Shown: positions 37,046 to 62,263 of the stretch, piece after piece | How the letters are laid out: each line of letters opens with the position of its first letter | Position numbering within the stretch: the first letter of the stretch is position 1 | DNA from: Candidatus Aminicenantes bacterium UBA1061 | GTDB taxonomy: Bacteria; Acidobacteriota; Aminicenantia; Aminicenantales; Saccharicenantaceae | Length of the DNA stretch: 64,000 nt | Reading direction: 5' to 3' | Assembly: GCA_002316315.1 (NCBI GenBank) | Contig: DCDG01000018.1 | Span: 56,074 to 120,073 of the forward strand | Notes under the pieces: generated by a model | What the model saw: the letters and a program-made list of their open reading frames with translations, nothing else | Database searches by the model: none | Told to the model about the DNA's origin: nothing | Made by a program: the position numbers and the translations under genes

Positions 37046-37124
37046 GATTGGGAGAAGCGGCCTTCAGCTTAGAGCTAATGGTAAGCTATCTCCTGGGCCG
37101 TTCAGCATCTTTTTAGCCTCTAAC

Positions 37125-43438: not shown

Positions 43439-43716
43439 GATGGCAGGTTGAAAGATAACCCGGCAGCCAGATCTTTTGACCTTCACCTTGATTTCATGAT
43501 ACTTGCCGTCCCAGCTTTCCGGAACAGGATAACCAAGAACGTAATAGGCACCGGTCAGAGTCTCAATTTTCTCAATATGGTCGGGAGCAGCATAGATTGT
43601 CCCGGTGTACTGACCTCCAGTCTTCCAGGCTATCTCTCGAAGAGAAACGGTTCCCCTTGGATGAATAGATTCCTGAATTATTAGATATGTATTATCTTCC
43701 GTATCAACCGGAAAGC
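43439..43716 (-). pseudogene. Fragment (about 280 bp) of a VWA-like gene paralog, homologous to 47237-47516
   Basis: About 88% nucleotide identity to the C-terminal coding part of the 46807-48468 gene. No start codon, and it is fused directly to other repeat fragments. Confidence 0.65.
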
Positions 43717-44039
43717 CCTTTCAGGTTAAGAGATGGCATCCGAAACTAAGGAGAAGTGACGAGCTTCTGTATCAATGATCTATCAAGAATTAGTATCGAT
43801 GGCTTGACGAGAGTTAAGGCTAATAGAAATAATGAATGGCGAGTTGCAACAAAATTTTTGTGGTGAGCAACACTAAAATAACAGCCGGCGTCTAAACATT
43901 TAAACCTTGAAGCCTAAATCAAAAAAAGACCTCCTCTCCAATCACTATTTTCCCCCTCCTTATCTACCACACCCTTGGCTGAAGAGCCTACAAAGACTTG
44001 ACTTTCTTTTTTTTTGCGTTAACATATTAAAAAGAAAGC

Positions 44040-45023
44040 ATGATGAAAGCTACTAGCCTTACCCACAAGGACAAATTGTGTTTTCTTCAGGGTTCTGTTA
44101 AGAAGCGCAAAACATGTGCGATTGGACTGATAGCCGTGCTGTATATTCTTACTCTTATGTCATGTGTATCACCAAAACCGTCCGACAAGACAAATATTCT
44201 GCCTGAATTTGTGGCAGCCGCTTATGGAGATAAAAATCTAGTTTCTAAGGAGTTGCGCGGCTGCACGTTCGTAATTTTTATCAATTCTACAGAGACCTAT
44301 CACATCGATCTCCTCGAGAAAGTATACAGAGATTATTCAGACGACGTCAATATTATCGCTTTTGTTGGCCAAATTTCCCTTCTCCCACTCTTGCACGACA
44401 GATTCCCGAGAGCCTGGATCATAGATGATAGCCAACAACTTTTCGTTGAAAAGTTTGATGCTAGATCTTGTTGCGGCCGATTTTTCATCTATGATTCGAG
44501 CAAACAATTAATCGCAGCTGGGAACAATACAGTATTCTATGAAGAAGGAACTAGATCAATTTTACAAAGAACCGTGGACCATATCAGTTTCGATATTTCA
44601 GTTCTGATACCCGAACAGAGCGTATCAGATAGTCCCGTGTTTCGAGAATTATGGGATCGATTACGTGTCCAAGAAAAGAGTACATATGTAATATTTATGC
44701 TGTCTGATATTTGTGGCTCCTGCCCCGTTGCCAAGACAATTTCGGAATTGTCAGCAGCATTAATCAGGCAACTAGATACCATTGGAGTAGCATTTCTCTT
44801 CTCGTCAGATTTTTCAGATATCGATATCCGGAACTTCAAAGTAAAATGGTCAGTTCCCTGGCCGTGTATACGTGCCGATGGCGATCTGGCTCTTAAATGG
44901 AATGATTTAATTCATGATTTTAGTCGAGAAGAACTGAATCAGATCCTTCTGCTTGTGGATTCGAGAGGAAAGTTGCTGGCCATAAACCAGGCCGCTTTTA
45001 AGAAACTGGTAGAGGTGAAATAA
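44040..45023 (+). CDS. Tandem thioredoxin-fold (TlpA/redoxin-like) lipoprotein
   Basis: Lipobox LTLMSC. The second domain carries CxxC (DICGSCP). The first domain is redoxin-like with a single Cys (RGCTF). It is separated by 1 bp from the downstream NHL paralog 3. Confidence 0.55.
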   Translation: MMKATSLTHKDKLCFLQGSVKKRKTCAIGLIAVLYILTLMSCVSPKPSDKTNILPEFVAAAYGDKNLVSKELRGCTFVIFINSTETYHIDLLEKVYRDYSDDVNIIAFVGQISLLPLLHDRFPRAWIIDDSQQLFVEKFDARSCCGRFFIYDSSKQLIAAGNNTVFYEEGTRSILQRTVDHISFDISVLIPEQSVSDSPVFRELWDRLRVQEKSTYVIFMLSDICGSCPVAKTISELSAALIRQLDTIGVAFLFSSDFSDIDIRNFKVKWSVPWPCIRADGDLALKWNDLIHDFSREELNQILLLVDSRGKLLAINQAAFKKLVEVK

Positions 45024-45024
45024 G

Positions 45025-46110
45025 ATGCCAGACCTAAAAACCAGAGTAGCATGGGCAATACTTGTGTTGATGATGCTTGCTTCTGGGCAGGCTCCGGCCT
45101 TGTTGTCCCAGAGCAAATACAGAACCGATTCAGATATTAAGAAGACGCTTCTTGAGAAATATCGAATCCAACCAGAGTGGCAAGAGATGGAAATTGTTCG
45201 CATCTTTCCCGGCGAGGAGGACCTAAAATCATCTCACTATTTAAACTATCCATCAGATCTAGTTCGAATCGGGGATAACTTGTTCGTTGGGGACTATGGC
45301 CTGGGGCAAGTCTTAATCTTCGACAAGGATGGGACATATCGTGGTACCTTCGGACGTCGCGGACAAGGTCCTGGTGAGTTTTCCCGTCTGGGAGAGATAG
45401 CCGGCAACGAAGCCAGCGGAATCTATGTCACCGACTCCGGAAGAATCCAGCATTTTTCCTTGGATGGTAGTTTTTTGGAGTCATTTAAATTTTTTGATAT
45501 TGTTAATGATATGGTCATTAATGGCCCTCATTTGTTGATTAATGCGATCTATGGACAGTCCAAAAATAAACAGAATCCTCTGATCATCCGCTGTGATCTC
45601 GCCGGAAATATCATATCGACCTTCGGCAACCGAATTGATCAAGACAACCATTATTCTACTGATAGCCGTGCTTATTTGGCTGCACGGGGCAGCGAAACTG
45701 TAGCCGTCTTCAGGCATTACCCCCAAATTCAAATCTATGATCATCTGGGAGTTCTGAAGAAACAATCGCAAATCAGTATTCCAATTCTTACCCATCTTGA
45801 AAAATTCAACTATGATAGCTCATTCACCAACCCGATGCCTGGCGTTATTAATTTGACCAGGCTGGTTGCCGGCGTTCAGATAGCAAGGGATAAAATCTTT
45901 ATTCTTTTGCATCTGCCCAGGATTGAGATTCATGAAATTGATGAATCCGGAAAGGTTCAAAAAGTGTATTATAGTCAGCGTTTAAACAATATCGTTGATT
46001 ATAGGGGATTTGCCTTAAGGCCTGACGGACCGGATTATTTCGCCTATATCGTCACCGTTTCTGAGGAAGAGATTTCATTATATACTTTTAAAATCAAACA
46101 AACCAGATGA
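45025..46110 (+). CDS. NHL-repeat / 6-bladed beta-propeller secreted protein, paralog 3
   Basis: Signature GRRGQGPGEF, signal peptide, 361 aa. Confidence 0.7.
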   Translation: MPDLKTRVAWAILVLMMLASGQAPALLSQSKYRTDSDIKKTLLEKYRIQPEWQEMEIVRIFPGEEDLKSSHYLNYPSDLVRIGDNLFVGDYGLGQVLIFDKDGTYRGTFGRRGQGPGEFSRLGEIAGNEASGIYVTDSGRIQHFSLDGSFLESFKFFDIVNDMVINGPHLLINAIYGQSKNKQNPLIIRCDLAGNIISTFGNRIDQDNHYSTDSRAYLAARGSETVAVFRHYPQIQIYDHLGVLKKQSQISIPILTHLEKFNYDSSFTNPMPGVINLTRLVAGVQIARDKIFILLHLPRIEIHEIDESGKVQKVYYSQRLNNIVDYRGFALRPDGPDYFAYIVTVSEEEISLYTFKIKQTR

Positions 46111-46806: not shown

Positions 46807-48468
46807 TCAATTTTTATCAGGCCCGGGGATGATGACAGAAGCTGCCGCCACAGCTGACTTGCCTGTCTCCATATTCCTTATGACCAGCCGGCACTTGTAA
46901 GTTCCTGGTTTAGCTGAAAGTTCACTCTGAATGGAGAGAGGTTTCTGGCGATACTCAGGTTTCGTTAGATCAAGCTCAATACGCCGGCTGTCAACTATCT
47001 GATCAAGCTGGTCAAAGAGAAGACTGACTGCTTCCACTCTCGGACCGACAACTTCCCCCAGCTCCTCCAACCGAAGCCTCGCTATGATCTGAATATTATT
47101 GGGTGGCGCAGGCGATTTAACCTGAGCCTCCATATCAAACCGTAACGGTTCGCCAGAGAGTGGCCTGGGTGAAAGAGCCACATCGACCAGGTGAATTTTT
47201 TTCTCCAGCTCTGAAAAGGAAGAAAATGGCTTCTGATTGAAATAGCCAGGTTGAAAGATAACCCGACAGCCAGGTCTTTTAACCTTCACCTTGATTTCAT
47301 GATACTTGCCGTCCCAGCTTTCCGGAACAGGATAACCAAGAACGTAATAGGCAGCGGTTAGAGTCTCAATTTTCTCAATGTGGTCGGGAGCAGCATAGAT
47401 TGTCCCGGTGTACTGACCTCCAGTCTTCGAAGCCATCTCTCTCAAGGAAGGTATTCCCTTTGCGGTCTCAGGGTACTCCAAATAGAAATTATCTTCAGTA
47501 TCAACGGGAAAGACTGAGGCATTAGCATCAGCTAACTGACGGCAGAGCTGTTCATATTCCCGGCCGAGATGAGCATTGCCATTATCAACATAGGCACCGC
47601 GACCTATATAGGCCGGGTGGATGCCGTTAGAATAAAGAAGAATGATTTTCTTCCCCTGAATATAACGCAGGGCCTGGGCGAGAGACTGCATTGACCAGAT
47701 AAAGTTAGAAGATACGATCTTGCCCGCCATTACATCATTGGACATCCGCCCAGGGCCCGAGCGTGAATATGAATCATAAGCAGCTCCGGAAGTTGCGATC
47801 TGGAATTGCGAATCAAAGAAGCGGCTCGGAGCCAGTGGCATAATATCTTTAGCCTGAATAGACTCAATCGCCCGTCGTGCTCCTTCCCGGTCACGGTCAG
47901 GCTGATGCAGAACATTGAGAACGCGGCCACCAGAAAAAGTTAAAACCCCAACCAGCATGTCCGGCTCAAGCTCTTTCTCAAGAGAGCGAAGCGCTGCCTC
48001 CCGGGCTAATTTAAATCCTCCCTGATCAGTAAACACTAAATCAAATAAATAGAGGAAGATGCGGTTTAGAAGAGGTTGCGGGGCCGGTACCTTCTCTTCT
48101 GGCTTATTTTCGACGACAGGCTCGGGTCCTTTCTTTTCAGCCGGGAGAGACATGGTGTGATTCTCAAACTCGGTCAGCAGCTTCTCCTTACCATTATCAT
48201 AAAGAATAAAGTCTTCTTTGCTCAGGTCAGTCACCGGCTGGCCTTTATCATCAGTCACCATGACATAGATGAGCTTTCTGATGACACTGACCTGGTATTG
48301 CTGGTTATCCCTGACCTTTTCCTGCCCTTGCCCCATGTTTGGCAGCAAGGAAACGAAAACGCCAACAACCAGGAAGGCCACAAGAATAATTACGATCAGC
48401 GAGCTTGAACGCCTATTCCCGGCCGAAGCTTTCCCTCTTGATAAAGCCCTGAAGACCTCAAGCTTCAT
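46807..48468 (-). CDS. Membrane-anchored VWA-like protein (resembles the VWFA-related Acidobacterial-type domain family)
   Basis: N-terminal transmembrane segment. A beta-sandwich N-domain (VMVTDDKGQPVTDLSKEDFILYDNGKEK) is followed by a VWA-like region (LVGVLTFSGG...). 553 aa. Confidence 0.45.
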   Translation of the reverse strand: MKLEVFRALSRGKASAGNRRSSSLIVIILVAFLVVGVFVSLLPNMGQGQEKVRDNQQYQVSVIRKLIYVMVTDDKGQPVTDLSKEDFILYDNGKEKLLTEFENHTMSLPAEKKGPEPVVENKPEEKVPAPQPLLNRIFLYLFDLVFTDQGGFKLAREAALRSLEKELEPDMLVGVLTFSGGRVLNVLHQPDRDREGARRAIESIQAKDIMPLAPSRFFDSQFQIATSGAAYDSYSRSGPGRMSNDVMAGKIVSSNFIWSMQSLAQALRYIQGKKIILLYSNGIHPAYIGRGAYVDNGNAHLGREYEQLCRQLADANASVFPVDTEDNFYLEYPETAKGIPSLREMASKTGGQYTGTIYAAPDHIEKIETLTAAYYVLGYPVPESWDGKYHEIKVKVKRPGCRVIFQPGYFNQKPFSSFSELEKKIHLVDVALSPRPLSGEPLRFDMEAQVKSPAPPNNIQIIARLRLEELGEVVGPRVEAVSLLFDQLDQIVDSRRIELDLTKPEYRQKPLSIQSELSAKPGTYKCRLVIRNMETGKSAVAAASVIIPGPDKN

Positions 48469-49911: not shown

Positions 49912-50030
49912 ACCATCTTCTCTTCTGAACTCCATTGTCTAAGCTTCATCCTGACACCTCCTTACTCAGTATAATCTCTATCTCTTTGAGGTGTCCACCT
50001 CCTCAGGGGGTCAGTATAACCTCTTATACT
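49912..50030 (-). mobile_element. Solo left-end remnant of the IS3-family element (inverted repeat, 5' UTR and first ~12 codons of orfA)
   Basis: About 90% identical to 59950-60070. The reverse complement begins ATGAAGCTTAGACAATGGAGTTCAGAAG, encoding MKLRQWSSE as in orfA at 59993. Confidence 0.7.
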
Positions 50031-50409
50031 TAGCACTGAGCTTGTAACGTTTAAGCACATAGCGGACAGTAGAAGGCTTAACCTCAACTCCCCGTTCGCG
50101 AAGTATCCTGGCCACCCGGTCTCGGCCAAAGCCAGTCTTCTTCCTCTCGGCTATGATCAGAGCTTCCACCGCCGCTGACGTTCTCCGAGGCGAGCGTTTT
50201 GGCCTTCGAGACAGCGGCTTCAGCCCAGCCTCTCCTCTCTCCTCCCACCGCCTTACTACCTTCCTCACTGTCTTGCGAGTCGTTCTAAACACCCTGGCTA
50301 CTTCTGAGATATTCCCACTCTCCTCATAGGCCTTAATCACTGCCTTCCTGGCGAATTCCACTGACCCCTTGAAAAGCTCACAGTAACTGAGGTATAAAGA
50401 TTCTGTCAC
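50011..50409 (-). CDS. IS481-family transposase N-terminal (HTH) fragment; the DDE integrase domain is missing
   Basis: The pattern ...GLKPLSRRPKRSPRRTS...STVRYVLKRYKL is typical of IS481-type transposase N-termini. The ORF stops after 132 aa, and its last codons run into the IS3 end remnant. Confidence 0.5.
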   Translation of the reverse strand: MTESLYLSYCELFKGSVEFARKAVIKAYEESGNISEVARVFRTTRKTVRKVVRRWEERGEAGLKPLSRRPKRSPRRTSAAVEALIIAERKKTGFGRDRVARILRERGVEVKPSTVRYVLKRYKLSAKYKRLY

Positions 50410-50575
50410 TCGGGGCTCACCTCCTTTCTTTTAAGAGTTTCAATAACACTTTTAATGGAGGGAGCCCTGCTTTTTCAAGTACCAAGCTCATAAATCTCCG
50501 GCCTTCTTCTATCCCTGTCCCTACTGCCGGCTCTCCAGCACGTCGCGACCAAAGCTCCTTACTCCTCCATCCTCC

Positions 50576-50617
50576 CTGGATACTATGTCTTAACCTGAAT
50601 GAGAAAAAGACTTGACA
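50576..50617 (+). promoter_or_regulatory. Second copy of the conserved promoter-like motif, upstream of the small peptide/NHL paralog 5
   Basis: TGGATACTATGTCTTAACCTGAATGAGAAAAAGACTTGACAG versus TGGATATGATTTACTGATCTGAATGAGAAAAACCATTGACAA. Confidence 0.4.
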
Positions 50618-50690
50618 GACCGTTTTTTTTATTCATTTTTAAAGCAGAAGGAGATGATGGAAATAAAAATCTGAAAAAGGGGAATATACC

Positions 50691-50918
50691 ATGAAAAAAG
50701 TTGTGTCTGTTCTTCTCTTGATTCTCATTTTTATGCGGATCACCATGAGTATTTTAAATTTCACAACAAAAGTCTACGCTTCAGCACCGTCTATTTTCGG
50801 CACGACAACCAGGGGCGGGAGCTATTATGATCAGCTTAGATGGTACCTTCAGGGCCGGTGGATGTACGGAGATTACTATTGCATTGGTGAAGCATCTAAT
50901 TGTTCCATAGTCAACTAA
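50691..50918 (+). CDS. Small secreted peptide (75 aa; Tyr/Gly/Cys-rich C-terminal part)
   Basis: Signal peptide, then ...GGSYYDQLRWYLQGRWMYGDYYCIGEASNCSIVN. Lies 40 bp upstream of NHL paralog 5. A TTGACA-containing conserved motif sits upstream. Confidence 0.35.
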   Translation: MKKVVSVLLLILIFMRITMSILNFTTKVYASAPSIFGTTTRGGSYYDQLRWYLQGRWMYGDYYCIGEASNCSIVN

Positions 50919-50960
50919 ATTCCTATATCATCTCCTCCTATCCATGAAAAAGGACATAAG

Positions 50961-52055
50961 ATGAGGAAAATAGGATTAAAAGGTTTACTAACATTTGTCA
51001 TTTATCTTCAGATGGTGAGTATCTGCTTCTCGCAACTAGTAAAATTAGATAAAAAAATACCGATAGAAGAAAACGCACTTATTGTCTCTGGCTCTTTTGC
51101 CCTGTTACCGAATGGAACTTTCATTTTTACCGATATTAGAGATGAGAATAACCAGATTAAAATTATCAATGACAAGGGGAAGATAATAAAAGCCTGGGGT
51201 AAAATGGGACCAGGACCAGATGAGTTCAGTGGTCTGGCAGAAATCGATTATCAGAATCCTTACTTAGCCATTATGGATGCAGGCAAAAGATGCATTCATA
51301 TTTTTGAGACAGACCTCGATAAATTCAGAAAAATAGGAGACATCCTCGCCTGGGAGGCAACAGATTTTATTAAATTATATGATAAAAGCGTTTTAATGGG
51401 CGGGTATATCACTTCGCCGAAAGGAAAGGGCTACATAGTATTCGCGAGAGATTTTAATGGAGGTAATACGCAATATATTCTTCCCTTTGAATATAAATAT
51501 GGAGAGCGTTCCTTAAGTGAACATCAAAAGACCAGAGAAGAAGTTTCAGGTATATCATCTAGAGATTATGCTGACATTTATGAAGATGACCTCTTTTATA
51601 TAAGCGATGTGAGAGTCAGGGTGATTAAGACCAATCTCAAGACCAAAAAGATAGAAATCCTCGGGAAAGATCCAAAGAATTTCAGAGCGCTGGTGATGGA
51701 TAAGAAAACCAGGAACGAATTACTGCAACCGCAAACTGGCAAGGGGAAAATGCAAGAGATTTTAAATAAATTTTCTTTTGTAACTCGTATTTTTGTTGAC
51801 AAAGACTATTTTGGCCTGATCTTTTTGAACCGGGAAAAAAAGGTCGGCAATGAACTCTATTTTGTGGCCTATGTTCAAATTTATGATCACTCTGGAAAGG
51901 TGTTGTATGAAGGTCAGCTGGAAGACTTTTATACTGAAGAGAAGATTTCTCCACTTGTTTATCAAAAAGGGACAGGCTGCTTGTATTTGCTTGGTATGAC
52001 CAGCAGTGAACTCGGCGTAAAATATGTGATTTATAAATATCAGATTAAATTATGA
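50961..52055 (+). CDS. NHL-repeat / 6-bladed beta-propeller secreted protein, paralog 5
   Basis: Signature GKMGPGPDEF, signal peptide, 364 aa. Confidence 0.65.
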   Translation: MRKIGLKGLLTFVIYLQMVSICFSQLVKLDKKIPIEENALIVSGSFALLPNGTFIFTDIRDENNQIKIINDKGKIIKAWGKMGPGPDEFSGLAEIDYQNPYLAIMDAGKRCIHIFETDLDKFRKIGDILAWEATDFIKLYDKSVLMGGYITSPKGKGYIVFARDFNGGNTQYILPFEYKYGERSLSEHQKTREEVSGISSRDYADIYEDDLFYISDVRVRVIKTNLKTKKIEILGKDPKNFRALVMDKKTRNELLQPQTGKGKMQEILNKFSFVTRIFVDKDYFGLIFLNREKKVGNELYFVAYVQIYDHSGKVLYEGQLEDFYTEEKISPLVYQKGTGCLYLLGMTSSELGVKYVIYKYQIKL

Positions 52056-52550
52056 AGAGGCTTATTTATTTTTTAGCGGCAGTAATCGTCCTTTATCTGA
52101 TCAGCGTAATTTATAAATATCAGGTAACACCAATATTGATTAATTTCCCGGTCGATGAACTGGGAATAATCCCTAAAAAGAAGTCAGGTTGAATCTTGTG
52201 CTGTTCTTTTCAAAAAAAATTGCACACCGTGTGTTCAACATATAGTAAATTATTTAAACGAGGCACCAGAAAGTATTCAGGTTGTGGGAATAGTCAAGGA
52301 GGAAGAACTAAAGTTTTTAGATGAGATTAGAGAAACAACTGGGGCGAAATTTCCAATTAAAAGCATAAAAAAATGGAAGAAATACAGACCAAATTATGCT
52401 CCCACTTTATATGGGGTTGGCTCTGATGGTAAAATATATTTTGTCATCGCTTGTACTGCCCTCGAAGAGAATTATTGGCGGGCATATGTTGATGAATTTA
52501 TGAGAAAAGCTGAATATTTGCTACTAAAACCAAGTTTAAAATCAAATTGA
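52052..52550 (+). pseudogene. Frameshifted membrane-anchored thioredoxin-like (CxxC) gene
   Basis: An ATG overlapping the NHL5 stop opens a 46-aa transmembrane-anchor ORF ending at about 52190. A different frame then continues as ...SCAVLFKKNCTPCVQH... through ORF 52284-52550, resembling the second domain of the 44040 redoxin. The frame change lies in or near A5-A8 homopolymers. Confidence 0.45.
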
Positions 52551-52652
52551 GATGTTAGATAATAAAGATGGTCTTATGATAAGAATCATGATTGTGTGGT
52601 ACTGATTCAATTTCCATTGGATATATAAGATACTTATATTTATTTGACTGAT

Positions 52653-55508
52653 TCAAAAAGTTGATAAGAAGGCACAGTTTATAAGGCGGGGGTAGCTGTC
52701 AGACTGAAGCCGCACTTCAGCCCGAAGAAAGCACACCGGAGGTGAGCCAAAAGCCAGAGCCTTCCTCTGGCCCACACCCTCAACCTGCCCGCTCTCGTCT
52801 TCAAAGAGATAAAAATAAGTCAAGCCCTTGGCTGTTCTGATTTCCCGGGCATCTACTACCCGCACAGCCAGTTCGACCACCTGACCGGATAATTCCCTGA
52901 GGTGAGCAACTCGCAGCGGCGGCCGCCGGCCATTCAGTAGCTCCAGCGGGTCGCCAGCCGGCAGGAAGCCCAGTTTTTCCAGCTGAAGTTTTTTCTTCTC
53001 CTCATCATTGATGTCTGCTACCTCGACTTCGGAGACACCATGAAAATAGTGCAGAACCTGCTGGCTGCGGTTTGGTTCAAGCGAATCAAGAGCTCCAGCC
53101 TGGATTAGAGCCAGCAGGTCGCTCTGGCCTGGTTTTACCCGTCCGAGGAAGTCTTCCACCGACAAATAGACGCCATCTCTCTCCCGCTCGTTGATGATTT
53201 TTTCTAGGCTCCTGGCGGTTAGATTTTTAATGGAACCAAGGCCAACTCTAATCGCCTTCCCTTCGACCTCAAAGCGATAACCGCTGCGGTTGACATCCGG
53301 GCCAAGGATCGTTAAGCCCAGCCTCTTAGCTTCCTCAATGTATTCCGGAAGCTGGTAGTAACCACCGGCCGCATTAAGCACAGCCACCATATAGACCAGA
53401 GGATAATGAGCTTTAAGATAAACGGCTTCATAAGCCATGAGGGCATAAGAGGCGCTATGAGCCCGGTTAAAAGAATAGGCCGAAAATTTTTCCATCTTCT
53501 GCCACAGCTCCTGAATCTCAGCCTGAGCATAGCCGCGGCTTTCGGCCCGGTCAAAGAATTTCCGGCGCAAAGCCTCATCCACCCGGCGCTTTTTTAGCTG
53601 ACGGCGCAAAAGTTCTCCTTCTTCCGGCGGGAAACCAGCCACCCTTTCTGCCACCTGCATCACCTGCTCTTCATAAAACATCAGGCCGCCGGTTTCGGGG
53701 AGAATCTTAGCCAGCAGCGGGTCTGAAGGAGAAGCCCTCCCCTCGCGTCGCCTCAGAAAGGCTTCTTTCATCCCGCTTTCAGTCGGACCAGGTCTGATTA
53801 AAGCCAGAGCATGGATTAAATCGTCCAGGTTTTCCGGCTTCATCCGGCGGAGGAGATTCATCATGGCCGGGCTTTCCACCTGAAAGCAGCCAATTGTTTT
53901 CGCTTCGCGGAGAAGAGTAAAAGTCTGGCGGTCAGCAGGCGGAAGATACTCAAGATGAAGAGTTTTTCTGGTCTCGGCTATAGCTGTCAGCCCGCGGGTA
54001 GAAAGGAGGTCAAGCTTAATAAGCTGGAGTTCTTCCACCGTGTCCCGGTCATAATGGCACATGAGGAGTCCTTTGGCTGATTTTTCAAGCGGCAGGTAGC
54101 GGTCAACTGGCGCCGGGGTCAAAATTACACCCCCAACATGGAGGGAAATCTCGGCGAAAACACCGTCCAGCTCAGAAGCCAGTTTCCAGATGTCCAGGCA
54201 GCCGGCCTGAGGCGGCATCTGCCGCAAATAATCAGGCTCGGCGAACATCGGCACCCGCTTGCTCATCGTCCTGGCTTCTTCCGGCGAGATGCCAAAAGCC
54301 CGGGCAGTTTCATAAAGGGCCGAGCGCGCCCGGTAATTCTTCAGGCTGCAGACATAAGCTGCACCGGTTTCTCCTGTCCCGTAACGTTTGAGTACATACT
54401 CCAGGACTTCATCCCGGCGGCTCGAGTCAAAGTCAAGGTCAAAGTCAGGTGGATCAGGCCGGCCGCGGTTTAAAAAGCGTTCAAAATAAAGGCCATACTC
54501 CACCGGATTAAGACGGGAAATGCCCAGAAGATAGGCCAGATAGGAAGAAGCTCCCGAGCCACGGAGATTGTGGTAGATGCCCTGGCGGCGGGCAAATTCC
54601 ACCACGTCACAAACAACAAGAAAATAAGGGGCAAAACCGCTCTCTTCAACCACCTGAAGCTCACGCACCGCCCGGGCCCTTTCTTCCCAGCTGAGATTTT
54701 TCAGCCTGGATAACCGGTCATTAATCACCTGACGCAGGGAAACAGGGAAAAGATCAGGCGGAAGAGGCGGAACAATATTTTTAAAAGAGAAATCTATTTT
54801 TTCGATAAGCTCCTGGTGGCGGCGAAAAATTGGTTTGACCCGGTCGCCATATTTTTTTAAAGCAATTTTTTCCTGCTCCGGGCCAAAATTTCTGAGGACC
54901 GGCGAAAGCCTTTTAAGTTCGGGCGGATAAGGAATTTTTTTCTCTATCGTCCGAAGGAGGACCAGGCGCGGCGCACTGGTCAGAAATTTCAGCGGCTCAG
55001 TCCAGAGAAGAGGAAACCCTGTTTTCGCTGAGAGCCACTCGCCGCCAGGCAGGTTGTTAAGACCGCAGCCAAGATAAAGATCATCCGGTGCCCGCTCCCC
55101 AATCTGGCGAATAAAACTCACCCACTCTTCGAGTTCCACTTCGGACACAGGCAGCTTTTCCGGCAGGATAAAAATGGTAGCGAGTCCATCCGGTTCCAGA
55201 AACTCCCGGCGATTAAAAATCTCAAGCAACCGGTGATAGCCCTTTTTCTCTTTGATGAGAAAAACATAGCGGCTGCCCCTTATGGGAAAATCCAGTTCAA
55301 GCTCGCAGCCAAAGACTGGCTTAAAGCCGCGCCCCTCGCTCAGGGCCTGCCACTTACCCCAGCCATAAAAAGCAGCCACATCGGTCAGGGCAGCTGCCGG
55401 GAGGCGATTTCTCTCTGCAAATTGCACGAGTTCTTCCAGGGTCAGGCTGCCTTCTCCCCGGCTAAAGGTTGAATGAACTCTTAAAGGGATAAACATTTTT
55501 GGACTCAC
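52653..55508 (-). CDS. dnaE2: Error-prone DNA polymerase III alpha-like (DnaE2/ImuC-type)
   Basis: 951 aa with a PHP N-terminal domain, a Pol III alpha core and a C-terminal OB region. It is the last gene of a lexA-dinB-dnaE operon and overlaps dinB by 4 bp. Confidence 0.65.
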   Translation of the reverse strand: MSPKMFIPLRVHSTFSRGEGSLTLEELVQFAERNRLPAAALTDVAAFYGWGKWQALSEGRGFKPVFGCELELDFPIRGSRYVFLIKEKKGYHRLLEIFNRREFLEPDGLATIFILPEKLPVSEVELEEWVSFIRQIGERAPDDLYLGCGLNNLPGGEWLSAKTGFPLLWTEPLKFLTSAPRLVLLRTIEKKIPYPPELKRLSPVLRNFGPEQEKIALKKYGDRVKPIFRRHQELIEKIDFSFKNIVPPLPPDLFPVSLRQVINDRLSRLKNLSWEERARAVRELQVVEESGFAPYFLVVCDVVEFARRQGIYHNLRGSGASSYLAYLLGISRLNPVEYGLYFERFLNRGRPDPPDFDLDFDSSRRDEVLEYVLKRYGTGETGAAYVCSLKNYRARSALYETARAFGISPEEARTMSKRVPMFAEPDYLRQMPPQAGCLDIWKLASELDGVFAEISLHVGGVILTPAPVDRYLPLEKSAKGLLMCHYDRDTVEELQLIKLDLLSTRGLTAIAETRKTLHLEYLPPADRQTFTLLREAKTIGCFQVESPAMMNLLRRMKPENLDDLIHALALIRPGPTESGMKEAFLRRREGRASPSDPLLAKILPETGGLMFYEEQVMQVAERVAGFPPEEGELLRRQLKKRRVDEALRRKFFDRAESRGYAQAEIQELWQKMEKFSAYSFNRAHSASYALMAYEAVYLKAHYPLVYMVAVLNAAGGYYQLPEYIEEAKRLGLTILGPDVNRSGYRFEVEGKAIRVGLGSIKNLTARSLEKIINERERDGVYLSVEDFLGRVKPGQSDLLALIQAGALDSLEPNRSQQVLHYFHGVSEVEVADINDEEKKKLQLEKLGFLPAGDPLELLNGRRPPLRVAHLRELSGQVVELAVRVVDAREIRTAKGLTYFYLFEDESGQVEGVGQRKALAFGSPPVCFLRAEVRLQSDSYPRLINCAFLSTF

Positions 55509-56764
55509 CTGGTAAGAGAAGCAGTTTTCAGGATAAAGCCGCGGCCTTTATCTTCCTGATAAACCTCACCCAGCATTTTTTCCCGGCCGGTTAGAACCGC
55601 AGTAAAGCCGTATCTCTCACGCACCCGGTCAAGAGCCTGAGAGAGGCGTTCATCTTTTTCCTGGTAAAACTCAAAAAGAGAAAGATGGCGCTCCTCGACC
55701 AGCCGGCTGCCTTTAACCCCGACTAGACGAAGAGCCAGGCGCGATTTATCCCACAGGTCCAAAAACAATTCCTCCGCCGCGCGGTAAATCCGGTTCATCT
55801 CCTGGACCGGCATGGACAGAAACCGGCGTTTGCTGACTGTCTTAAAATCCGAGTAGCGGGCTTTAACCTCAATCACCTGGGCATAAAATTTTTCCTGCCG
55901 TAAGGCGAGGGCCAGCCGGTCAGAAAGATAAGCTAAATGAGCCAGCAGGAGATCCCGGTCCCAGACATCCTGAAGAAAGGTAGTCTCCCGGGAGAAAGAT
56001 TCGGACTTCCCCCGGGTTTGAAGCGGACGGTAATCTATGCCCCGGGAGAGAAGATAAAGTTCATCGCCCATCACGCCGAACAAAGAACGCAGGGTGGCCA
56101 GCGGCAGCCGCCAGAGATCAGCTATTTTATGGACATTGAGCAGCCGGAGCATCACCTGGGCTTTAGGGCCAATACCTGGAATGGCGGAAATATCCAGCTC
56201 GCGCAAAAATTCTTCTTCCTCACCCGGCTGAAGCTCAAAGAAACCGCCCGGCTTGGCTCGCCTGGTGGCCAATTTGGCTAAGATTTTGTTGGAAGCCGCC
56301 CCAACCGAAACGCTCAGACCAACTTCCCTCTCTACCCGGCGTTTTATGTCCTTGGCCACCTCTGTAAAAGAAGAATATAGCTGACCGCAGCGGGTAAACT
56401 CTAAGTAGGCCTCATCCAGCGAAGCTTCTTCCACATCAGGTGTATAGTCATGGAGAATCTGGAAGAATTTCTCAGAAAAAGACTGATAGAGATGATAATT
56501 ACCCCGGACAAAAATCGCCTGAGGGCATAGTTTATAACACTCGCGAAGAGGCATACCGGAATGAACGCCATATTTGCGGGCCTCATAGGAGCAAGTAGCG
56601 GCTACCCCTCTTTCGTGCGGCAGGCCACCGACCACCAGCGGTTTACCCTTGAGGGAAGGATTGAGCAGCGCCTCCACCGAGGCAAAAAAAGCGTCGAGGT
56701 CAATATGGACGATATAACGCCTTTTTTGACAGTTGGAAAACTGAGCACCTGGTAACCGCATCAT
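55505..56764 (-). CDS. dinB: Y-family DNA polymerase (DinB/Pol IV-like; sits in the ImuB position of the cassette)
   Basis: HIDLDAFFASVE and SLDEAYLE retain the catalytic Asp/Glu residues of Pol IV. SVGAASNKILAKLA is also present. Confidence 0.7.
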   Translation of the reverse strand: MMRLPGAQFSNCQKRRYIVHIDLDAFFASVEALLNPSLKGKPLVVGGLPHERGVAATCSYEARKYGVHSGMPLRECYKLCPQAIFVRGNYHLYQSFSEKFFQILHDYTPDVEEASLDEAYLEFTRCGQLYSSFTEVAKDIKRRVEREVGLSVSVGAASNKILAKLATRRAKPGGFFELQPGEEEEFLRELDISAIPGIGPKAQVMLRLLNVHKIADLWRLPLATLRSLFGVMGDELYLLSRGIDYRPLQTRGKSESFSRETTFLQDVWDRDLLLAHLAYLSDRLALALRQEKFYAQVIEVKARYSDFKTVSKRRFLSMPVQEMNRIYRAAEELFLDLWDKSRLALRLVGVKGSRLVEERHLSLFEFYQEKDERLSQALDRVRERYGFTAVLTGREKMLGEVYQEDKGRGFILKTASLTR

Positions 56765-56784
56765 TTTCCCCTGATTTTAAAGAC

Positions 56785-57411
56785 TTAATATTTTCGAATC
56801 ACACCGGCTACCCGGCCGATGATCCGGACTTCCTTAACTTCGATCGGCTTAAAGGCCGGATTTTCTGGAACCAGCAGCACCCGGTCTTTTTCCCGGCGAA
56901 GGCGTTTTAGAGTTACTGTGCCATCTTCAAGAAGAGCTACGACCATCTCGCCCGAATTAGCTGTTTCTGCCCTTTCTATGACCACTAAATCACCGTCATC
57001 AATGTAGGCATCAATCATGCTTTTACCGGTCACTTTCAGGCAGAAAAGATTGCCACTTTTCCGCCCGGCGAACCAGGCCGGAACCTCAACGCTCTCGCCC
57101 AGGGTATCAAACATCTCACGCGGGCTACCGGCTGGAACAAGGCCAACTAAGGGAAGGCGCAACTGCTGGACAGCATCCGGCAGATAAGTGAGCCGCAACT
57201 CGCCGCCTTCTCTCCTTAAGTAACCTTTCTTTTCCAGGCTGAGGAGGTGTTTAAAAACAGCCGAGGGGTTGGCGAGGCCGGTCATCTGCCCTATTTCCCT
57301 CACCGTTGGGGCATAGCCATGGTCAAGGATAAAATCCTGGATTTTATCCAGAATTTCCTTCTGCCTTCGAGTCAGTGTCCTTTTAATTCTGTTAACCAAT
57401 TTGTTCACCAT
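56785..57411 (-). CDS. lexA: LexA repressor (S24 peptidase)
   Basis: Winged-helix N-terminus. The C-terminal S24 domain has the Ser-Lys dyad (GKSM ... K). 208 aa, placed directly upstream of dinB and dnaE2. Confidence 0.8.
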   Translation of the reverse strand: MVNKLVNRIKRTLTRRQKEILDKIQDFILDHGYAPTVREIGQMTGLANPSAVFKHLLSLEKKGYLRREGGELRLTYLPDAVQQLRLPLVGLVPAGSPREMFDTLGESVEVPAWFAGRKSGNLFCLKVTGKSMIDAYIDDGDLVVIERAETANSGEMVVALLEDGTVTLKRLRREKDRVLLVPENPAFKPIEVKEVRIIGRVAGVIRKY

Positions 57412-57507
57412 TTATAAAATAATCCCAGCCAGTGCCTTTGTCAAGAGAAAATTTTGCCGTGAGAAAATCTGGAACATCTATCTATTAAGGAGCCAGCGCC
57501 CGAGTTA

Positions 57508-57551
57508 CATGGATATGATTTACTGATCTGAATGAGAAAAACCATTGACAA
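57508..57551 (+). promoter_or_regulatory. Conserved promoter-like motif (TGGATA..CTGAATGAGAAAAA..TTGACA) in the divergent lexA/NHL6 intergenic region
   Basis: About 45 bp that are also present at 50576-50617, upstream of the peptide/NHL5 locus. The motif contains a -35-like TTGACA. Confidence 0.4.
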
Positions 57552-57607
57552 AGTGCAGGTCGGGATTTATATCAATCTGAGGTACAATAAATAAAAGGGG
57601 TTCAGGA

Positions 57608-58681
57608 ATGAAGAAGAAGAGAGTCTTTAAATTTCTGGTCATATTATTTCTCGTGGTATTTATTTACAGTGCCATATCAATACAGAAAGGAGAAGGCCAA
57701 CCTGTAGAAGTACAACAGGTAAGTGTAATCAAAAACATAGGTGAAGGAATTTATGGTCAGAAAATCAAAGACAAGATTAAATTTATAAAAGTTCTTAGCT
57801 TAGGCGCTGAAGCTGATAACGCTCCTGATTATCTTATGTTCGGGAGAAACATCAACGTTGAAATTGATCAGGGGCAAAACCTGTTTGTTCTTGATGAGCA
57901 AAATAGCAGGCTGATGAAATTTGATCAGAATGGTCGATTCCTCTGGAAAGCAAGTAGAAAAGGACAGGGACCTGGAGAAATAGAAGCTCCATTTGGGATG
58001 AAGTTAACAGAGGATGGTGGGATAGCCATAATAGATCAAGGAGGCAAGATCAACTATTTTGATGGAAATGGGAATTTTTTAAAACTGGTTAGAATGGCCA
58101 AAGAAATAAAATCTATAATCTCATTTTCGAAAGGAAAAATATTTGCCAACTTGTTTATACACGGTCAACCAGGTATAACGGCAGCCTGGTTTTCTGAAAA
58201 TGGAGAGCTTATTGATTATTTTCCTGTTGAATATTATTACGGTCCGAAACTATCCGGACGGCTAGCATATGACCTGGGTGCTAAATTCATACTCGGAGGA
58301 GATCAACTTTATTTGAGCCTTCCAGATAAGTATGAAATACAAATCTATTCCTTGAAAGGGCAGTTATTGAGGAGAGTTATCAGAGATGTAAAAATAAGGC
58401 CTCCATTTCTGGAAGAGGGCTACCGATTCGTAGTGAAAGATATATCGGGTCCGGCCCAATTAATTTCCAATGGATTCCTGATTAACGAACTGTCTCTGGA
58501 TGCGTGGACAGAGGCTGGAAAAAAATATATTGATTTTTTTAATAAGGATTTCCAGTTTCTCGGTTCTTATCCTGTTCCCAAAAATGCTTATTTAGCCAGA
58601 GTTGATAAAGACGATAATTTTTATTTTGTCGAGATTGATTCCTGGGTTAAAATAATCAAGTACAAATTAAAAATCGACTGA
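57608..58681 (+). CDS. NHL-repeat / 6-bladed beta-propeller secreted protein, paralog 6
   Basis: Signature SRKGQGPGEI, N-terminal signal or anchor, 357 aa. Confidence 0.7.
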   Translation: MKKKRVFKFLVILFLVVFIYSAISIQKGEGQPVEVQQVSVIKNIGEGIYGQKIKDKIKFIKVLSLGAEADNAPDYLMFGRNINVEIDQGQNLFVLDEQNSRLMKFDQNGRFLWKASRKGQGPGEIEAPFGMKLTEDGGIAIIDQGGKINYFDGNGNFLKLVRMAKEIKSIISFSKGKIFANLFIHGQPGITAAWFSENGELIDYFPVEYYYGPKLSGRLAYDLGAKFILGGDQLYLSLPDKYEIQIYSLKGQLLRRVIRDVKIRPPFLEEGYRFVVKDISGPAQLISNGFLINELSLDAWTEAGKKYIDFFNKDFQFLGSYPVPKNAYLARVDKDDNFYFVEIDSWVKIIKYKLKID

Positions 58682-58843
58682 TTCAAATCCCTCCTAAACT
58701 TTTCAGCTGGGTTATCCACTGTCGAGAGGAATTATGTAGTGAACCCCGAAAGGCAAGACACTTTTTCTCGCATTGAGAGATAGAGTTCTTTTCACAAAAA
58801 TAATCAATATCATTTGGATTACAGGCTGTGGCTTTAACCCGGT

Positions 58844-59692
58844 TCATATTTGAGCTCCTGCCGATGTAGCTTCCTGTGTTTGAGCCCATTGCTGAGTAAA
58901 CTCTTCCGGGCTTAAATACCCCAGAACTGAGTGGACATAGAGCCGATTATAGTCTTCCTCTATCCAGGCACCGATTCTGGCCTCAGCTTCCTCAAAGGAG
59001 CCAAACTCATTTAACCACAGCAGTTCTTCTTTGATGGTCCGTATAACCCTTTCGGTCTCAGCATTACCCCGTGGATTGTCATATGAACAGAAAATCTGAT
59101 TAATATCCAGCCCGGCTGTCTCGGTCATAAAGGCCACCGAGGTTGGCTGCGACCCATTGTCTGAGATAAGATTTAGCCCCTGACCTCTTACTCCACAGGG
59201 AAACTTCCGACACAGTGCCCGGTCCAGTGCTTCTTTCCATTCAGAGGTCTTAGCTCGCAGTGATAGCTCCCAGCCTACTATCTCCTTGGTATACCAGTCC
59301 AGCACCACAACGAGATAACACCAGCCTGAAGAGCCTAAGATAAACTTCGTCATGTCTATTCCCCAGTACTGGTTAGGCCTGGTTGCCTTCGGTTTCCCCC
59401 TCTGGAAACTACGCACTGCTTTATGCCTCACTTGTTCTACCACCAGGCCATTTTCCCTCATCAACCTGTAAACACGCTTCTGATTAACTACAAGACCCTC
59501 CCGATGATTCAGCCAGGCTGTCATCCGTCTGTATCCCCAGAAGGGATGCAATAGCCGAAGCTCCTTGAGCTTCTTCACCACACCCCCATCCTTATCCAAG
59601 CTCCGTCTTTGCCTCTCCTTCCGATACTGCCCGCTCCGGCTTATCCCGAGAGCCTCACAGGCCGATTTCAAGCTCATCCCTCGCTCCCTCAT
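58844..59692 (-). CDS. IS3-family transposase OrfB (DDE integrase core)
   Basis: 282 aa rve-like catalytic domain (..WGIDMTKF..., ..ISDNGSQ..). It lies in the -1 frame relative to orfA. Confidence 0.75.
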   Translation of the reverse strand: MRERGMSLKSACEALGISRSGQYRKERQRRSLDKDGGVVKKLKELRLLHPFWGYRRMTAWLNHREGLVVNQKRVYRLMRENGLVVEQVRHKAVRSFQRGKPKATRPNQYWGIDMTKFILGSSGWCYLVVVLDWYTKEIVGWELSLRAKTSEWKEALDRALCRKFPCGVRGQGLNLISDNGSQPTSVAFMTETAGLDINQIFCSYDNPRGNAETERVIRTIKEELLWLNEFGSFEEAEARIGAWIEEDYNRLYVHSVLGYLSPEEFTQQWAQTQEATSAGAQI

Positions 59693-59714
59693 CAGCTCGA
59701 CTACTTCCCCGAGA

Positions 59715-59993
59715 TTAACTCTTGAGTTTTTTTAAAGCCTCAATCGCCATCGTCTGCCGCCCTATGATCTTCTCCAGTTTCTCTATCTGAGCTTGAAGCA
59801 CCTTCGTTTCATCCTCACTGCCCCCGTTGCTTAATCCCTTCTGACCAGCCTCCAAAAACCTGTCCCGCCACCGATAATACAATGCCTGGCTTATCTGATG
59901 TTCCCGACATATCTCAGCTACCGATTTTTCCCCCTTTAACCCCTCCAGCACTATGGCCATCTTCTCCTCCGAACTCCATTGCCTTAGCTTCAT
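59715..59993 (-). CDS. IS3-family transposase OrfA (HTH)
   Basis: 92 aa. The IS3 OrfA-like sequence ends ...ALKKLKS at the A7 slippery site. Confidence 0.75.
   Translation of the reverse strand: MKLRQWSSEEKMAIVLEGLKGEKSVAEICREHQISQALYYRWRDRFLEAGQKGLSNGGSEDETKVLQAQIEKLEKIIGRQTMAIEALKKLKS
59727..59733 (-). promoter_or_regulatory. A7 slippery heptamer for programmed -1 ribosomal frameshifting (OrfAB fusion)
   Basis: Seven consecutive A on the coding strand at the end of orfA, overlapping the upstream extension of the orfB frame. Confidence 0.6.
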
Positions 59994-60413
59994 CCTGACA
60001 CCTCCTTATTCAGTATAAACTCTATCTCTCAGAGGTGTCCACCTCCTCAGGGGGTCAGTATAAACTCTTGACGGCCCCCCTAAGTTGTCGGCCGAATATT
60101 TTTCATGATTTTCTTCTTGCCCGGAAGGAGATGTCCGGCTGAATTCTGGCGCTTTTGACCTTATCCGGGTATTCTGTGCCCATCTCCGGCCTTTTTTTGC
60201 TCAATTTGACGCCCACGCTTAGTATTTTCTATCATTCCTGCACTGGGGATGGGGCAAAATTGGCGCAGGAGCAACTGTCCGGCCAGCACAGCAGAAAACC
60301 AAATTCTTATCTGTTAATCCATGGCCTTTGGCACTCCTGGAAGTTTCAGCCCGCCAACCTGTCTTAATGATGTTATTCTATCTGTTAGCCCAAGATGCCA
60401 AAAAATTGCCAGC

Positions 60414-61520
60414 TCAAAGATTTAATTTATAGGAGATAATGACAGGATTGGGAAAAGGCTCACCGGACTGAGGCTCTTCCCATTTTTCGACATAAAAAGA
60501 ATTTCCATCAGAGTAGATAATGTTCAAAGATAAGGGAATTCCGCCAGCAAGAAAATTGCCCTCAGTATCAAATATATCAAGATGGTTCTGGAGCTGGACA
60601 AGCAACAGGCTCTTTTCTAAGTAATAGGGGCCATTCAGAACACCTTGCCTCCCTTCCCTTGGTTCGAGCTGCTGAAAATGGGGATTGACGAATGATTTAA
60701 CCAGCTGCCCACCTGAGGTATATTTCCGAATCCGGTAAAATAATGGATTCATTTCATAAATGAAATCGTCCTTATCTATAGCTATTCCATCAGTACCGCA
60801 GGAAAAGAAAAACTTAAAAACTTCTTCAGGAATCGGCGCAAAACTTAAGATTGTCTCCCCATTATTATTGAGCTTTTTAATGGTGTCAAAAATCCAGGGT
60901 TTCTGGAGTCCCATGACAACCGAAGCAGGGACCATTCCTTCATACATAAATATTTCATTTTTATGGTTGACATGTACAAAGTGATACCACTTGCCTTTAG
61001 ATATTATTTGCTTTTTATACTGGTAATTGTGGTCATAAAAGATAAGCCGACTTCCTAGATAGTCGTCTACAAGAATATCCCCTTCCGGGCTTACTTCCAA
61101 ACTCACTGGCGTGGAATATTCCCCTGGTCCCTGACCTTGCCGGCCTAAGTTTTGTATAAAATGCCCGTCTGAACTGAATATCCAGACATTGTTCATACGA
61201 AGCCCGTCGGCTACGATGAAATTTCCCTTTGAGTCCCGGACGAAATCACTGATGGTGCTAATGGCGCTGTTTTCAGTCAGTTCCAGCTGGGTTTCAGCAG
61301 TCTTCGAAAATATGTCTTCGATTTTCCTGGCTGAGGACAAAGCCTTGAGTTCTGATGAGGATAGAGGCGAGTTAGGAGCTTTAGGCTGGCGAGAGCAGCC
61401 CCAGGAGAATAATAAGACTAATGCTATCGATACCAGACAACCTCGATGCCTCATGACCTCCCTCCCTGATGCTCTATTACGATATTCTAATACCATAGTC
61501 AAGCCCCTGTATTGCTTCAC
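60414..61520 (-). CDS. NHL-repeat / 6-bladed beta-propeller lipoprotein, paralog 7 (start probably an internal Met before the lipobox FSWGC)
   Basis: Signature GRQGQGPGEY, lipobox, 368 aa. Confidence 0.7.
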   Translation of the reverse strand: MKQYRGLTMVLEYRNRASGREVMRHRGCLVSIALVLLFSWGCSRQPKAPNSPLSSSELKALSSARKIEDIFSKTAETQLELTENSAISTISDFVRDSKGNFIVADGLRMNNVWIFSSDGHFIQNLGRQGQGPGEYSTPVSLEVSPEGDILVDDYLGSRLIFYDHNYQYKKQIISKGKWYHFVHVNHKNEIFMYEGMVPASVVMGLQKPWIFDTIKKLNNNGETILSFAPIPEEVFKFFFSCGTDGIAIDKDDFIYEMNPLFYRIRKYTSGGQLVKSFVNPHFQQLEPREGRQGVLNGPYYLEKSLLLVQLQNHLDIFDTEGNFLAGGIPLSLNIIYSDGNSFYVEKWEEPQSGEPFPNPVIISYKLNL

Positions 61521-61924
61521 TTGAAATCTACAAGAAACTGATCCGTTGCGTCACGAGAAAATCTACACGAAAACGTTTTGCCTTCTGGCTAAGGATGAAG
61601 CTAAATTCGGTGGTGAGATTAGCCAGGAGGCGAAGCGATGGGTTTAGAGATGAAAGTTAAAAGAGCGGTCTTAAAGGAGATAGCCTGTAAGTATCAGCGG
61701 AGCTCTAAGAAGGGTAAGGGGCAGGTGCTGGAGGGGCTTCTAGGGCTTATAGCTATAACCGCTGTCATGGTAGCTGGTTATTGCGCAACTGTAGTCGGAA
61801 AGTGGTGATGAGGAGGCTCGACGGGGAGCAGGTAATAGTAATTGGGGAGATAAGGAAGATAAAGCGGAGGCGGAAGAAGGTATTGAGGTGGCTTGTAAAC
61901 ATCAAGTACTTTTTCTACTATTTG

Positions 61925-61996
61925 GGTAAGGACATTTCCCATGGTCACGGTAAGGATATTTCCCACCCTGATGGTAAGCAGATTTCCAATAGTCAG
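61925..61996. repeat. Tandem 24-bp repeat, 3 copies
   Basis: The three units are GGTAAGGACATTTCCCATGGTCAC, GGTAAGGATATTTCCCACCCTGAT and GGTAAGCAGATTTCCAATAGTCAG. Confidence 0.7.
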
Positions 61997-62263
61997 CTGG
62001 AATGATTTAGACCTCCTTTCTTGAGATTAACTTCTTTAAAAGGAGATTTGACGAGACTCACTCCTCTACTGCAATTTGAAAATTATCTTATACACCCGCA
62101 CTGGCGCTATCACCGGCTATAAGTTCAGAAACGCAAAATAAATAGTTGCTGGCATTCCGACCTGCCCTGAGTAATTCTGGACTGACGCAGGCGTCATAAG
62201 CCTGGCTTATTCCGACTCCAGCCGACCGCGACAAGACTCCTATTTGCAGACTGAAGAAGATTA

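Follow-up and report, generated by a model that had tools for sequence, protein, structure and literature searches.

A promoter-like motif shared by loci of an Aminicenantia genome is probably the end of an IS481-like insertion sequence abutting host −35 hexamers

Introduction

IS481 targets NCTAGN and has outward promoters of its own, and the retrotransposons Ty3 and Ty1 integrate at RNA polymerase III genes. The closest precedent for the element described here is the ISAba32 subgroup of the IS1202 family of insertion sequences (IS), in which the left terminal inverted repeat (IRL) always lies 5 bp from a XerCD site, the 5 bp being the target duplication (bioRxiv 10.1101/2022.12.17.520857). 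Here we analyse a promoter-like motif that recurs in a 64,000-nucleotide stretch of Candidatus Aminicenantes bacterium UBA1061 (contig DCDG01000018.1, positions 56,074 to 120,073; hereafter the window, numbered from its first letter), for which an earlier note, made from the sequence alone, had proposed a regulator shared by propeller-gene cassettes and possible SOS co-regulation, one copy being located beside lexA. Our comparisons make it likely that the motif is a composite, consisting of the end of an IS481-like IS together with the upstream edge and −35 hexamer of a host promoter, and that it marks landing sites and no regulon. New here is the apparent homing of an IS family to promoters, as judged from sequence comparison.

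Results

The shared motif and its copies

The motif, TGGATA-N12-CTGAATGAG-N8-TTGACA, occurs twice on the forward strand, with identical spacing, in register and with 31/41 identity between the two sites:

50577-50617, forward strand: site A, with TGGATA at 50577-50582, N12, CTGAATGAGAAAAA at 50595-50608, N3 and TTGACA at 50612-50617
57510-57550, forward strand: site B, with TGGATA at 57510-57515, N12, CTGAATGAGAAAAA at 57528-57541, N3 and TTGACA at 57545-57550

The 23-nt core CTGAATGAGAAAAANNNTTGACA has two matches in the window against 0.02 expected, and none of 100 shuffles reached two, demonstrating that the two-site motif reported previously is real; its coordinates had deviated by 1-2 nt, and its gaps are N12 for the first and, before TTGACA, N3 rather than N4. 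Searching with the left half of the motif revealed copy C on the reverse strand (42794-42754, TGGATAttatgtgctagcCTGAATAAGgtctgtatTTGACA), upstream of an operon of a C39-peptidase/TPR gene and a propeller gene, and a profile search yielded a degenerate copy D on the same strand (about 43743-43702; nhmmer E = 4.5e-4). Copies A and C have about 200 further nt in common, including a 63-nt block some 100 nt further in with 82% identity. Copy C, copy D and this extended similarity were absent from the earlier note, which had envisaged a longer duplicated segment that might include coding sequence: the longer similarity exists between A and C, and the inclusion of coding sequence was rejected. The propellers downstream of A and B, both DUF5128-type and six-bladed, are 21% identical (E = 0.2), and self-comparison of the window by blastn detected no extended similarity beyond the element.

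Copies were gathered by a scan of species-representative genomes and by a metagenome scan that did not require TTGACA. The former added three copies in two Acidobacteriota metagenome-assembled genomes, and the latter about ten further distinct copies together with several chance matches lacking upstream similarity. Altogether, the window and many metagenome-assembled genomes provided 22 distinct copies with unrelated flanks (loci outside the window carry L numbers). An element of about 100 nt ending in CTGAATGAG is thereby found at unrelated loci in at least ten assemblies, with the alignment gCCGGCTgCCCAGCACgTCGCGACCAAAcCT..TACtCCtCCatCc.CCCTGGATACtatgtCTTAACCTGAATGAG, and homology around the motif runs for 100-280 nt and reaches into a transposase gene. 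The parts of the four copies in the window are as follows.

50520-50603, forward strand: copy A, IS left end, outer ~84 nt (nhmmer E = 5e-25; aligned with five other copies)
50577-50603, forward strand: copy A, IRL core TGGATACTATGTCTTAACCTGAATGAG, its boundary at 50603 placed by two element-free alleles and pairwise identities
50604-50617, forward strand: copy A, putative host promoter part, A-rich N8 AAAAAGAC and −35 TTGACA (50612-50617)
57510-57536, forward strand: copy B, solo IRL remnant TGGATATGATTTACTGATCTGAATGAG
57537-57573, forward strand: copy B, putative host promoter of the propeller gene 57608-58681, with N8 AAAAACCA, −35 TTGACA at 57545-57550, a 17-nt spacer and −10 TATATC at 57568-57573
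42768-42957, reverse strand: copy C, solo left-end remnant, IRL core TGGATATTATGTGCTAGCCTGAATAAG at 42794-42768
42731-42767, reverse strand: copy C, putative host promoter of the C39-peptidase/TPR (41542-42531) and propeller (40354-41526) operon, with N8 GTCTGTAT, −35 TTGACA at 42759-42754, a 17-nt spacer and −10 GATATT at 42736-42731
43702-43743, reverse strand: copy D, degenerate IRL remnant (…CTTAACCTGAAAGGG), then N8 and TTGATA (43707-43702)

Copies B, C and D are solo left-end remnants that arose through internal deletions, and A keeps a truncated transposase gene. Copy C also retains the leader-hairpin block described below (42957-42895), the transposase gene itself being gone, and the stretch 57458-57509 may be a degenerate inner part of the element at copy B.

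Where the element ends

The boundary of the element was located within a close subfamily of 11 copies (55 pairs), for which mean identity was 0.89 over the terminal 32 nt, fell to 0.38 across N8, rose to 0.72 at the hexamer and was 0.32 in the flank past it. The drop is equally apparent between copy A and L026, which are identical at 53/55 positions as far as GAG and then at 2/8 positions in N8. Two alleles without the element provide a second line of evidence, the first of them lying in the window itself:

36742-36754, reverse strand: element-free promoter AAAATATTTGACA of an M64-like peptidase gene (34128-36641)

Orthologues of this gene in L025, L039 and L042 (~96% identical) carry an IS remnant directly upstream of the same bases. 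At L042 and L039 the sequence reads …CTGAATGAG followed immediately by AAAAACATTTGACA where the window keeps AAAATATTTGACA, the longer comparison being cacAAAATATTTGACAgcg in the window and GAGAAAAACATTTGACAgcg in L042. The second allele is the mutS-pgsA spacer of relatives (PgsA 88% identical), which is without the 84-nt element of L009 and keeps AATTTCAATTGACA…TAGTAT; within it, AATTTCAATTGACATTTG…GAAGTTTTAGTAT corresponds to N8 (7/8 identical), the −35 and the −10. Taken together, the sharp fall in identity and the two element-free alleles place the end of the element at CTGAATGAG, and the sequence comparison shows N8, TTGACA and the −10 to lie outside it, as the putative promoter of the host gene itself.

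Promoter features at a fixed distance

A −35-like hexamer (at least 5/6 matches to TTGACA) lies 7-8 nt past the end of the element in 19 of the 22 copies, and is exact in A, B and C; 20 of the 22 had been found without using the hexamer. A strict −10 hexamer, defined by at least 4/6 matches with A2 and T6 and a spacer of 16-18 nt, is present in 9/22 copies compared with 6.7% of background positions (P = 6e-6), an enrichment that also holds in the transposase-linked copies, with plausible hexamers at B (TATATC) and C (GATATT). Where checked, copies have a gene on the same strand that starts about 35-225 nt beyond the element, and the genes so tagged include those for pgsA, a PilZ protein, an ArsM-like methyltransferase, peptidases (M64, M24 and S9-like) and propellers, among others. 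The promoter-like character ascribed to the motif by the earlier note is borne out by this excess of −10 hexamers, by the gene starts that follow and by the retention of the hexamer in the element-free alleles. These data support TTGACA as a true −35, presumably each gene's own. A sigma-54 promoter was rejected, the GG/GC spacing from TGG being unmet at A and B.

The first five positions of N8 are rich in A and its last is a pyrimidine, such that N8 and the hexamer look like a proximal UP-element subsite followed by YTTGACA. The combination AAAA-N3-TTGAC[AT] occurs six times in the window against 0.63 expected from shuffles (about tenfold), and promoters of this organism may commonly have an A-tract beside the −35. 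Another A-tract with a −35, AAAGACTTGACT, had been taken for a weaker relative of the motif; it is indeed present, and the kinship does not hold, with no IS repeat adjoining it and no nhmmer match on that strand.

596, 24997, 25914, 36742, 50605 and 57538: AAAA-N3-TTGAC[AT] sites
43992-44003, forward strand: AAAGACTTGACT, an ordinary A-tract and −35 promoter of the 44040-46110 operon

At copy A the promoter part serves an operon of a small-peptide gene (50691-50918) and a propeller gene (50961-52055). The peptide has 75 aa and a signal-like N-terminus, and its gene precedes the propeller gene just as the C39-peptidase/TPR protein gene does at copy C; peptide and C39-peptidase genes ahead of propellers may hint at secreted-peptide processing in these cassettes. 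Just downstream of copy D lies a gene fragment of 216 nt (43444-43659), 92-95% identical to 47247-47462, an internal part of a 553-aa gene of unknown function (46807-48468), and probably a pseudogene remnant.

The insertion sequence

Beside copy A, the homology extends into the following two features.

50011-50409, reverse strand: truncated IS481-like transposase gene, 132 aa, N-terminal helix-turn-helix (HTH) part only
50412-50474, reverse strand: IS leader hairpin, predicted to sequester the transposase ribosome-binding site GGAGGTGA, with the GTG start at 50409

NCBIfam NF033577 is the best model for the product of 50011-50409 (E = 3e-23). Its closest homologue, P0001, is 94% identical, has 225 aa and includes the D…D part of the rve catalytic core; it is encoded at an unrelated locus, L010, between a giant Flg_new_2 gene and tyrS, with the rest of the transposase downstream in another frame. 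L010 carries the same ~280 nt ahead of the transposase pseudogene, namely …TATCCAGGG, …CTCATTCAGG, a long hairpin, GGAGG and the start codon, and this layout is kept in L045, L046, L047, L048, L050 and L051, with transposases 55-80% identical. A close homologue of the P0001 transposase accompanies only the copy-A and L010 types, the other copies of both scans being solo left-end remnants of varying length. Bit scores for NF033577 are 83 for the window fragment, 116 for P0001 and 88 + 46 for the split open reading frames (ORFs) of L051, all under the family cut-off of 224, since each copy has suffered truncation or a frameshift. An rve_3 domain is present, and the catalytic D, D and E can be recognised (TAIDV…QTDNGEEF…ERSYQTDDNEF).

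The leader hairpin folds at −23.8 kcal/mol (z = −3.6), pairing with the ribosome-binding site according to prediction, and the block is also found at copy C (82% identity) and in the IS relatives L010 and L045-L051. A hairpin over the ribosome-binding site is a common means by which an IS stays silent under read-through transcription. The ends at L010 form a 32-nt imperfect inverted repeat with arms at 3746-3777 and 4942-4973 (72% complementary); comparison of L010 with L050, where the right end is homologous, places that end at …CCAACGAC. These results show that TGGATA…CTGAATGAG, the left 27-32 nt, is the transposase-proximal terminal repeat (the IRL) of an uncharacterised IS481-like IS of Candidatus Saccharicenans/Aminicenantia.

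Among plasmid records the only relative of the transposase is a distant one (37% identity) on Thermovirga lienii pTLIE01 (L064; CP003097.1, 15.8-17.5 kb). It is frameshifted and unannotated, with TGTCAA about 150 nt upstream of the start codon and facing a small gene; neither definable ends nor a target duplication were found at L064. A miniature inverted-repeat element with two inverted ends was rejected, the solo copies having no inverted partner and the window no right-end remnants. A known RNA family was likewise rejected, with Rfam reporting only two tRNAs over threshold in the window and nothing near the motif better than E = 0.19.

Other mobile DNA is found alongside these copies. An IS3-family element occupies 58844-60069 (orfA 59715-59993, orfB 58844-59692), and a 113-nt fragment of an IS3 end, 92% identical (49913-50025, repeat D4), cuts off the transposase gene beside copy A. 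The homologous transposase gene of L046, which comes from an unrelated assembly, is likewise broken by an IS3-type element (3001-4652), and at a comparable position. The L046 contig carries, in addition to its transposase-linked copy, a second, solo IRL copy at 666-713 on the reverse strand, followed by N8, TTGACA, 17 nt, TATTAT and a gene start.

The lexA region

The lexA gene (56785-57411, reverse strand) precedes a gene for a DinB-like Y-family polymerase and then dnaE2, and its start codon lies 99 nt from copy B. Near-identical LexA proteins bear names that point to an uncultured Candidatus Saccharicenans (Aminicenantia, Acidobacteriota). The lexA gene has a promoter of its own, separate from copy B:

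57391-57444, reverse strand: lexA promoter, −35 TTGACA at 57444-57439 and −10 TATTTT at 57421-57416

This promoter is nearly invariant in four genomes, reading CTTGACA, 17 nt, TATTTT and then ATGGTGAACAAA(A/T)TGGTTAACA, and together with the first codons of the gene it is near-invariant down to third codon positions. Just 5 nt separate the −10 from the ATG, suggesting a lexA mRNA that is leaderless or has a very short leader. Promoter scan, conservation in the four genomes and pattern search point to an invariant GTGAACAAATTGGTTAAC at 57408-57391 as a candidate LexA operator; GTGAACAAA(A/T)TGGTTAAC may be the LexA operator of the lineage, and we infer GTGAAC-N6-GTTAAC, overlapping the lexA start, as the candidate operator pattern. 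A pattern search detected no sequence resembling GTGAAC-N6-GTTAAC near A, B or C. The earlier note had also called for comparison with LexA-box models, and the motif is unlike each of the LexA-binding motifs taken for this purpose from PMC4951493 (GAAC-N4-GTTC, CTGT-N8-ACAG, GTTC-N7-GTTC and TGTTC-N4-GAACA).

In three relatives, L052, L054 and L056 (LexA 94%, 89% and 85% identical), the element is absent near lexA, whose promoter is conserved. The window and L052 are homologous from a point inside dnaE2, where the L052 locus ends, through lexA to 57457; homology breaks at 57457/57458 and resumes at 62109, so that 57458-62108 (4.65 kb) is strain-specific. This segment holds copy B at its edge, the propeller gene 57608-58681, the IS3 element, another propeller gene and small ORFs; in L052 a serpin gene directly precedes lexA.

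The three GAGAAAA elements that the earlier note had pointed out in the lexA intergenic region are present (57445-51, 57462-68 and 57534-40). As an operator they were rejected: conservation in relatives is confined to the element next to the lexA −35, the second is specific to the strain, and the third belongs to the A-rich N8 of the promoter at copy B. The GAGAAAAA tract is not conserved among copies. A functional link of copy B to lexA, whether through SOS or through a shared regulator, is thus not supported: what the copies share is an IS terminal repeat, which elsewhere flanks unrelated genes, and lexA keeps its promoter and candidate operator in relatives without the element.

The accessory region near dnaE2

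The last ~300 nt of dnaE2 (52653-52967) are repeated three times in the window, at 36807-37106, 39942-40241 and 43080-43379, with 65-88% identity, and a lysA-like gene is directly followed by a further, partial copy at 32524-32594. A 44-nt repeat adjoins every full copy (37127, 40266 and 43400) and has one additional occurrence, at 38470. The ~20 kb that separate lysA from dnaE2 look like cassettes accreted at the 3' end of dnaE2; they carry secreted propellers, a BNR protein, a C39 peptidase and an M64-like peptidase, and no integrase gene was found in the window.

Discussion

On balance we lean slightly towards the interpretation that an IS481-like family in Aminicenantia homes to sigma-70 promoters by means of the −35 and its A-rich tract, placing its IRL exactly 8 bp upstream of the hexamer and thereby tagging, and perhaps rewiring, the upstream control of many genes. 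The intact layout would comprise the IRL, an inward leader of about 170 nt with the hairpin, and a transposase gene reading away from the neighbouring host gene. Insertion would be site-specific and in one orientation, and the 8 bp between IRL and −35 may represent the target duplication. What the transposase recognises may be the hexamer and A-tract themselves, or RNA polymerase bound at the promoter. A landing site of this type would be safe, with the core promoter left intact and all DNA upstream from about −44 replaced, and the window's three or four copies would mark promoters in an IS-rich accessory region.

Several observations weigh against homing. The hexamer at L022, L040 and L048 matches TTGACA at 4/6 positions only, although at the same place, copies B and L008 were found by patterns that include TTGACA and are biased to that extent, and the −10 of copy A is poor. 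No intact, two-ended and recently moved copy was found; L010 and L050, the only two-ended copies, are both old pseudogenes around which no target duplication is visible, and we infer where exactly the right end lies and that 8 bp are duplicated. In both element-free alleles other DNA, 35 nt (M64) and about 18 nt (pgsA), stands in the place of the element, so that these are no clean empty sites and the change may have been either a gain or a loss. Finally, strong selection acting on randomly placed insertions could in principle mimic targeting.

That last possibility, random insertion followed by survival only 8 bp upstream of a −35, could operate if the IS end (the TGGATA and CTGAATGAG blocks, at −44 to −70) served as an upstream activating sequence or if other positions were harmful. 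Survivorship bias is conceivable, as all copies seen are old and degraded, and every checked copy faces a gene start. Set against this, intergenic sites other than −44 should be equally harmless and none was seen, with 19/22 copies at N7-N8 and the remaining three at the same place; the spacing is the same in transposase-linked copies of different lineages; and chance would hit this exact position only about once per 10^3-10^4 events. We consider this explanation improbable, and accord about the same low standing to one in which TTGACA is the very tip of the IS (5'-TGTCAA…), an outward −35 that makes hybrid promoters with chance −10 hexamers in the flank. IS481-family ends usually start with TGT, and in every transposase-linked copy, distant ones included, conservation ends with the block TGTCAA. 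Outward −35 hexamers and hybrid promoters are, moreover, well documented for insertion sequences, including IS481 (PMC9330008). TGTCAA as the tip is contradicted by the two element-free alleles, which still carry N8 and TTGACA, and by the identity drop at CTGAATGAG. Copies with 96% identity up to CTGAATGAG have unrelated N8 sequences, N8 is not inherited with the element, the right end, as seen in L010 and L050, has no TTGACA counterpart, and the −10 enrichment in transposase-linked copies is what a whole, pre-existing promoter would give.

Least probable of all, in our estimation, is the proposal that a shared transcription factor co-regulates the propeller cassettes, possibly within the SOS response, including the variant in which HTH-only transposase fragments bind IRL remnants and regulate the tagged promoters. 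It could draw on the intact TGGATA and CTGAATGAG blocks of the otherwise decayed copy B, on the HTH-only fragments encoded beside copy A and at L010, and on the proximity of copy B to lexA. Conservation of the blocks is, however, explained by transposase-binding constraints common to IS subfamilies, the element flanks unrelated housekeeping and accessory genes, and the lexA region shows both a promoter conserved without the element in three relatives and a candidate operator unmatched near A, B and C, the motif itself being unlike the published LexA motifs. Even if promoter homing is correct, surviving HTH-only fragments are unlikely to bind the leftover ends and co-regulate the tagged promoters.

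For annotation, this analysis removes a tempting false lead: the shared motif would be IS debris beside ordinary promoters, without a regulon or SOS link. It also suggests that, through IS remnants, many genes at once can have their upstream regulatory DNA replaced. If homing is true, a fixed distance from a −35 hexamer would be a new target specificity for a bacterial DDE IS, a bacterial counterpart of promoter-homing retroelements that parallels the XerCD-site targeting of ISAba32. It would furthermore explain how such elements persist without killing genes, and would provide natural promoter markers in an uncultured phylum as well as a possible tool for promoter-directed insertion. The literature on promoter-targeting insertion sequences and on Saccharicenans transposons yielded nothing specific.

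Comparison with known systems

The hybrid and outward promoters of IS1, IS2, IS257, ISAba1, ISEcp1 and other elements (PMC9330008) resemble the present arrangement in having an IS end directly upstream of a gene and TTGACA at the junction; their −35 lies inside the IS, whereas here it persists in alleles without one. The IS481 family, for example IS481 of Bordetella pertussis, shares with our element NF033577 as best model, the D/D/E residues, imperfect terminal repeats and a position upstream of genes that affects transcription context. The scores here fall under the cut-off (116 vs 224 bits, all copies being broken), the ends do not start with TGT, and the promoter appears to belong to the host. 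ISAba32 is likewise a DDE IS with an IRL that always adjoins one particular host site, the short spacing and the orientation being constant. The target here would be a −35 hexamer (YTTGACA after an A-rich tract) and not a XerC/D site, the spacing is 8 bp rather than 5, the transposase matches IS481 best and the ISNCY model weakly, and no target duplication was found at L010, L050 or L064. In the case of Ty3 and Ty1 the enzyme, the host kingdom and the targeting partners (TFIIIB, Pol III) are all different, and the analogy is functional only; it lies in integration at a fixed position from the site of transcription initiation, which serves as a safe haven.

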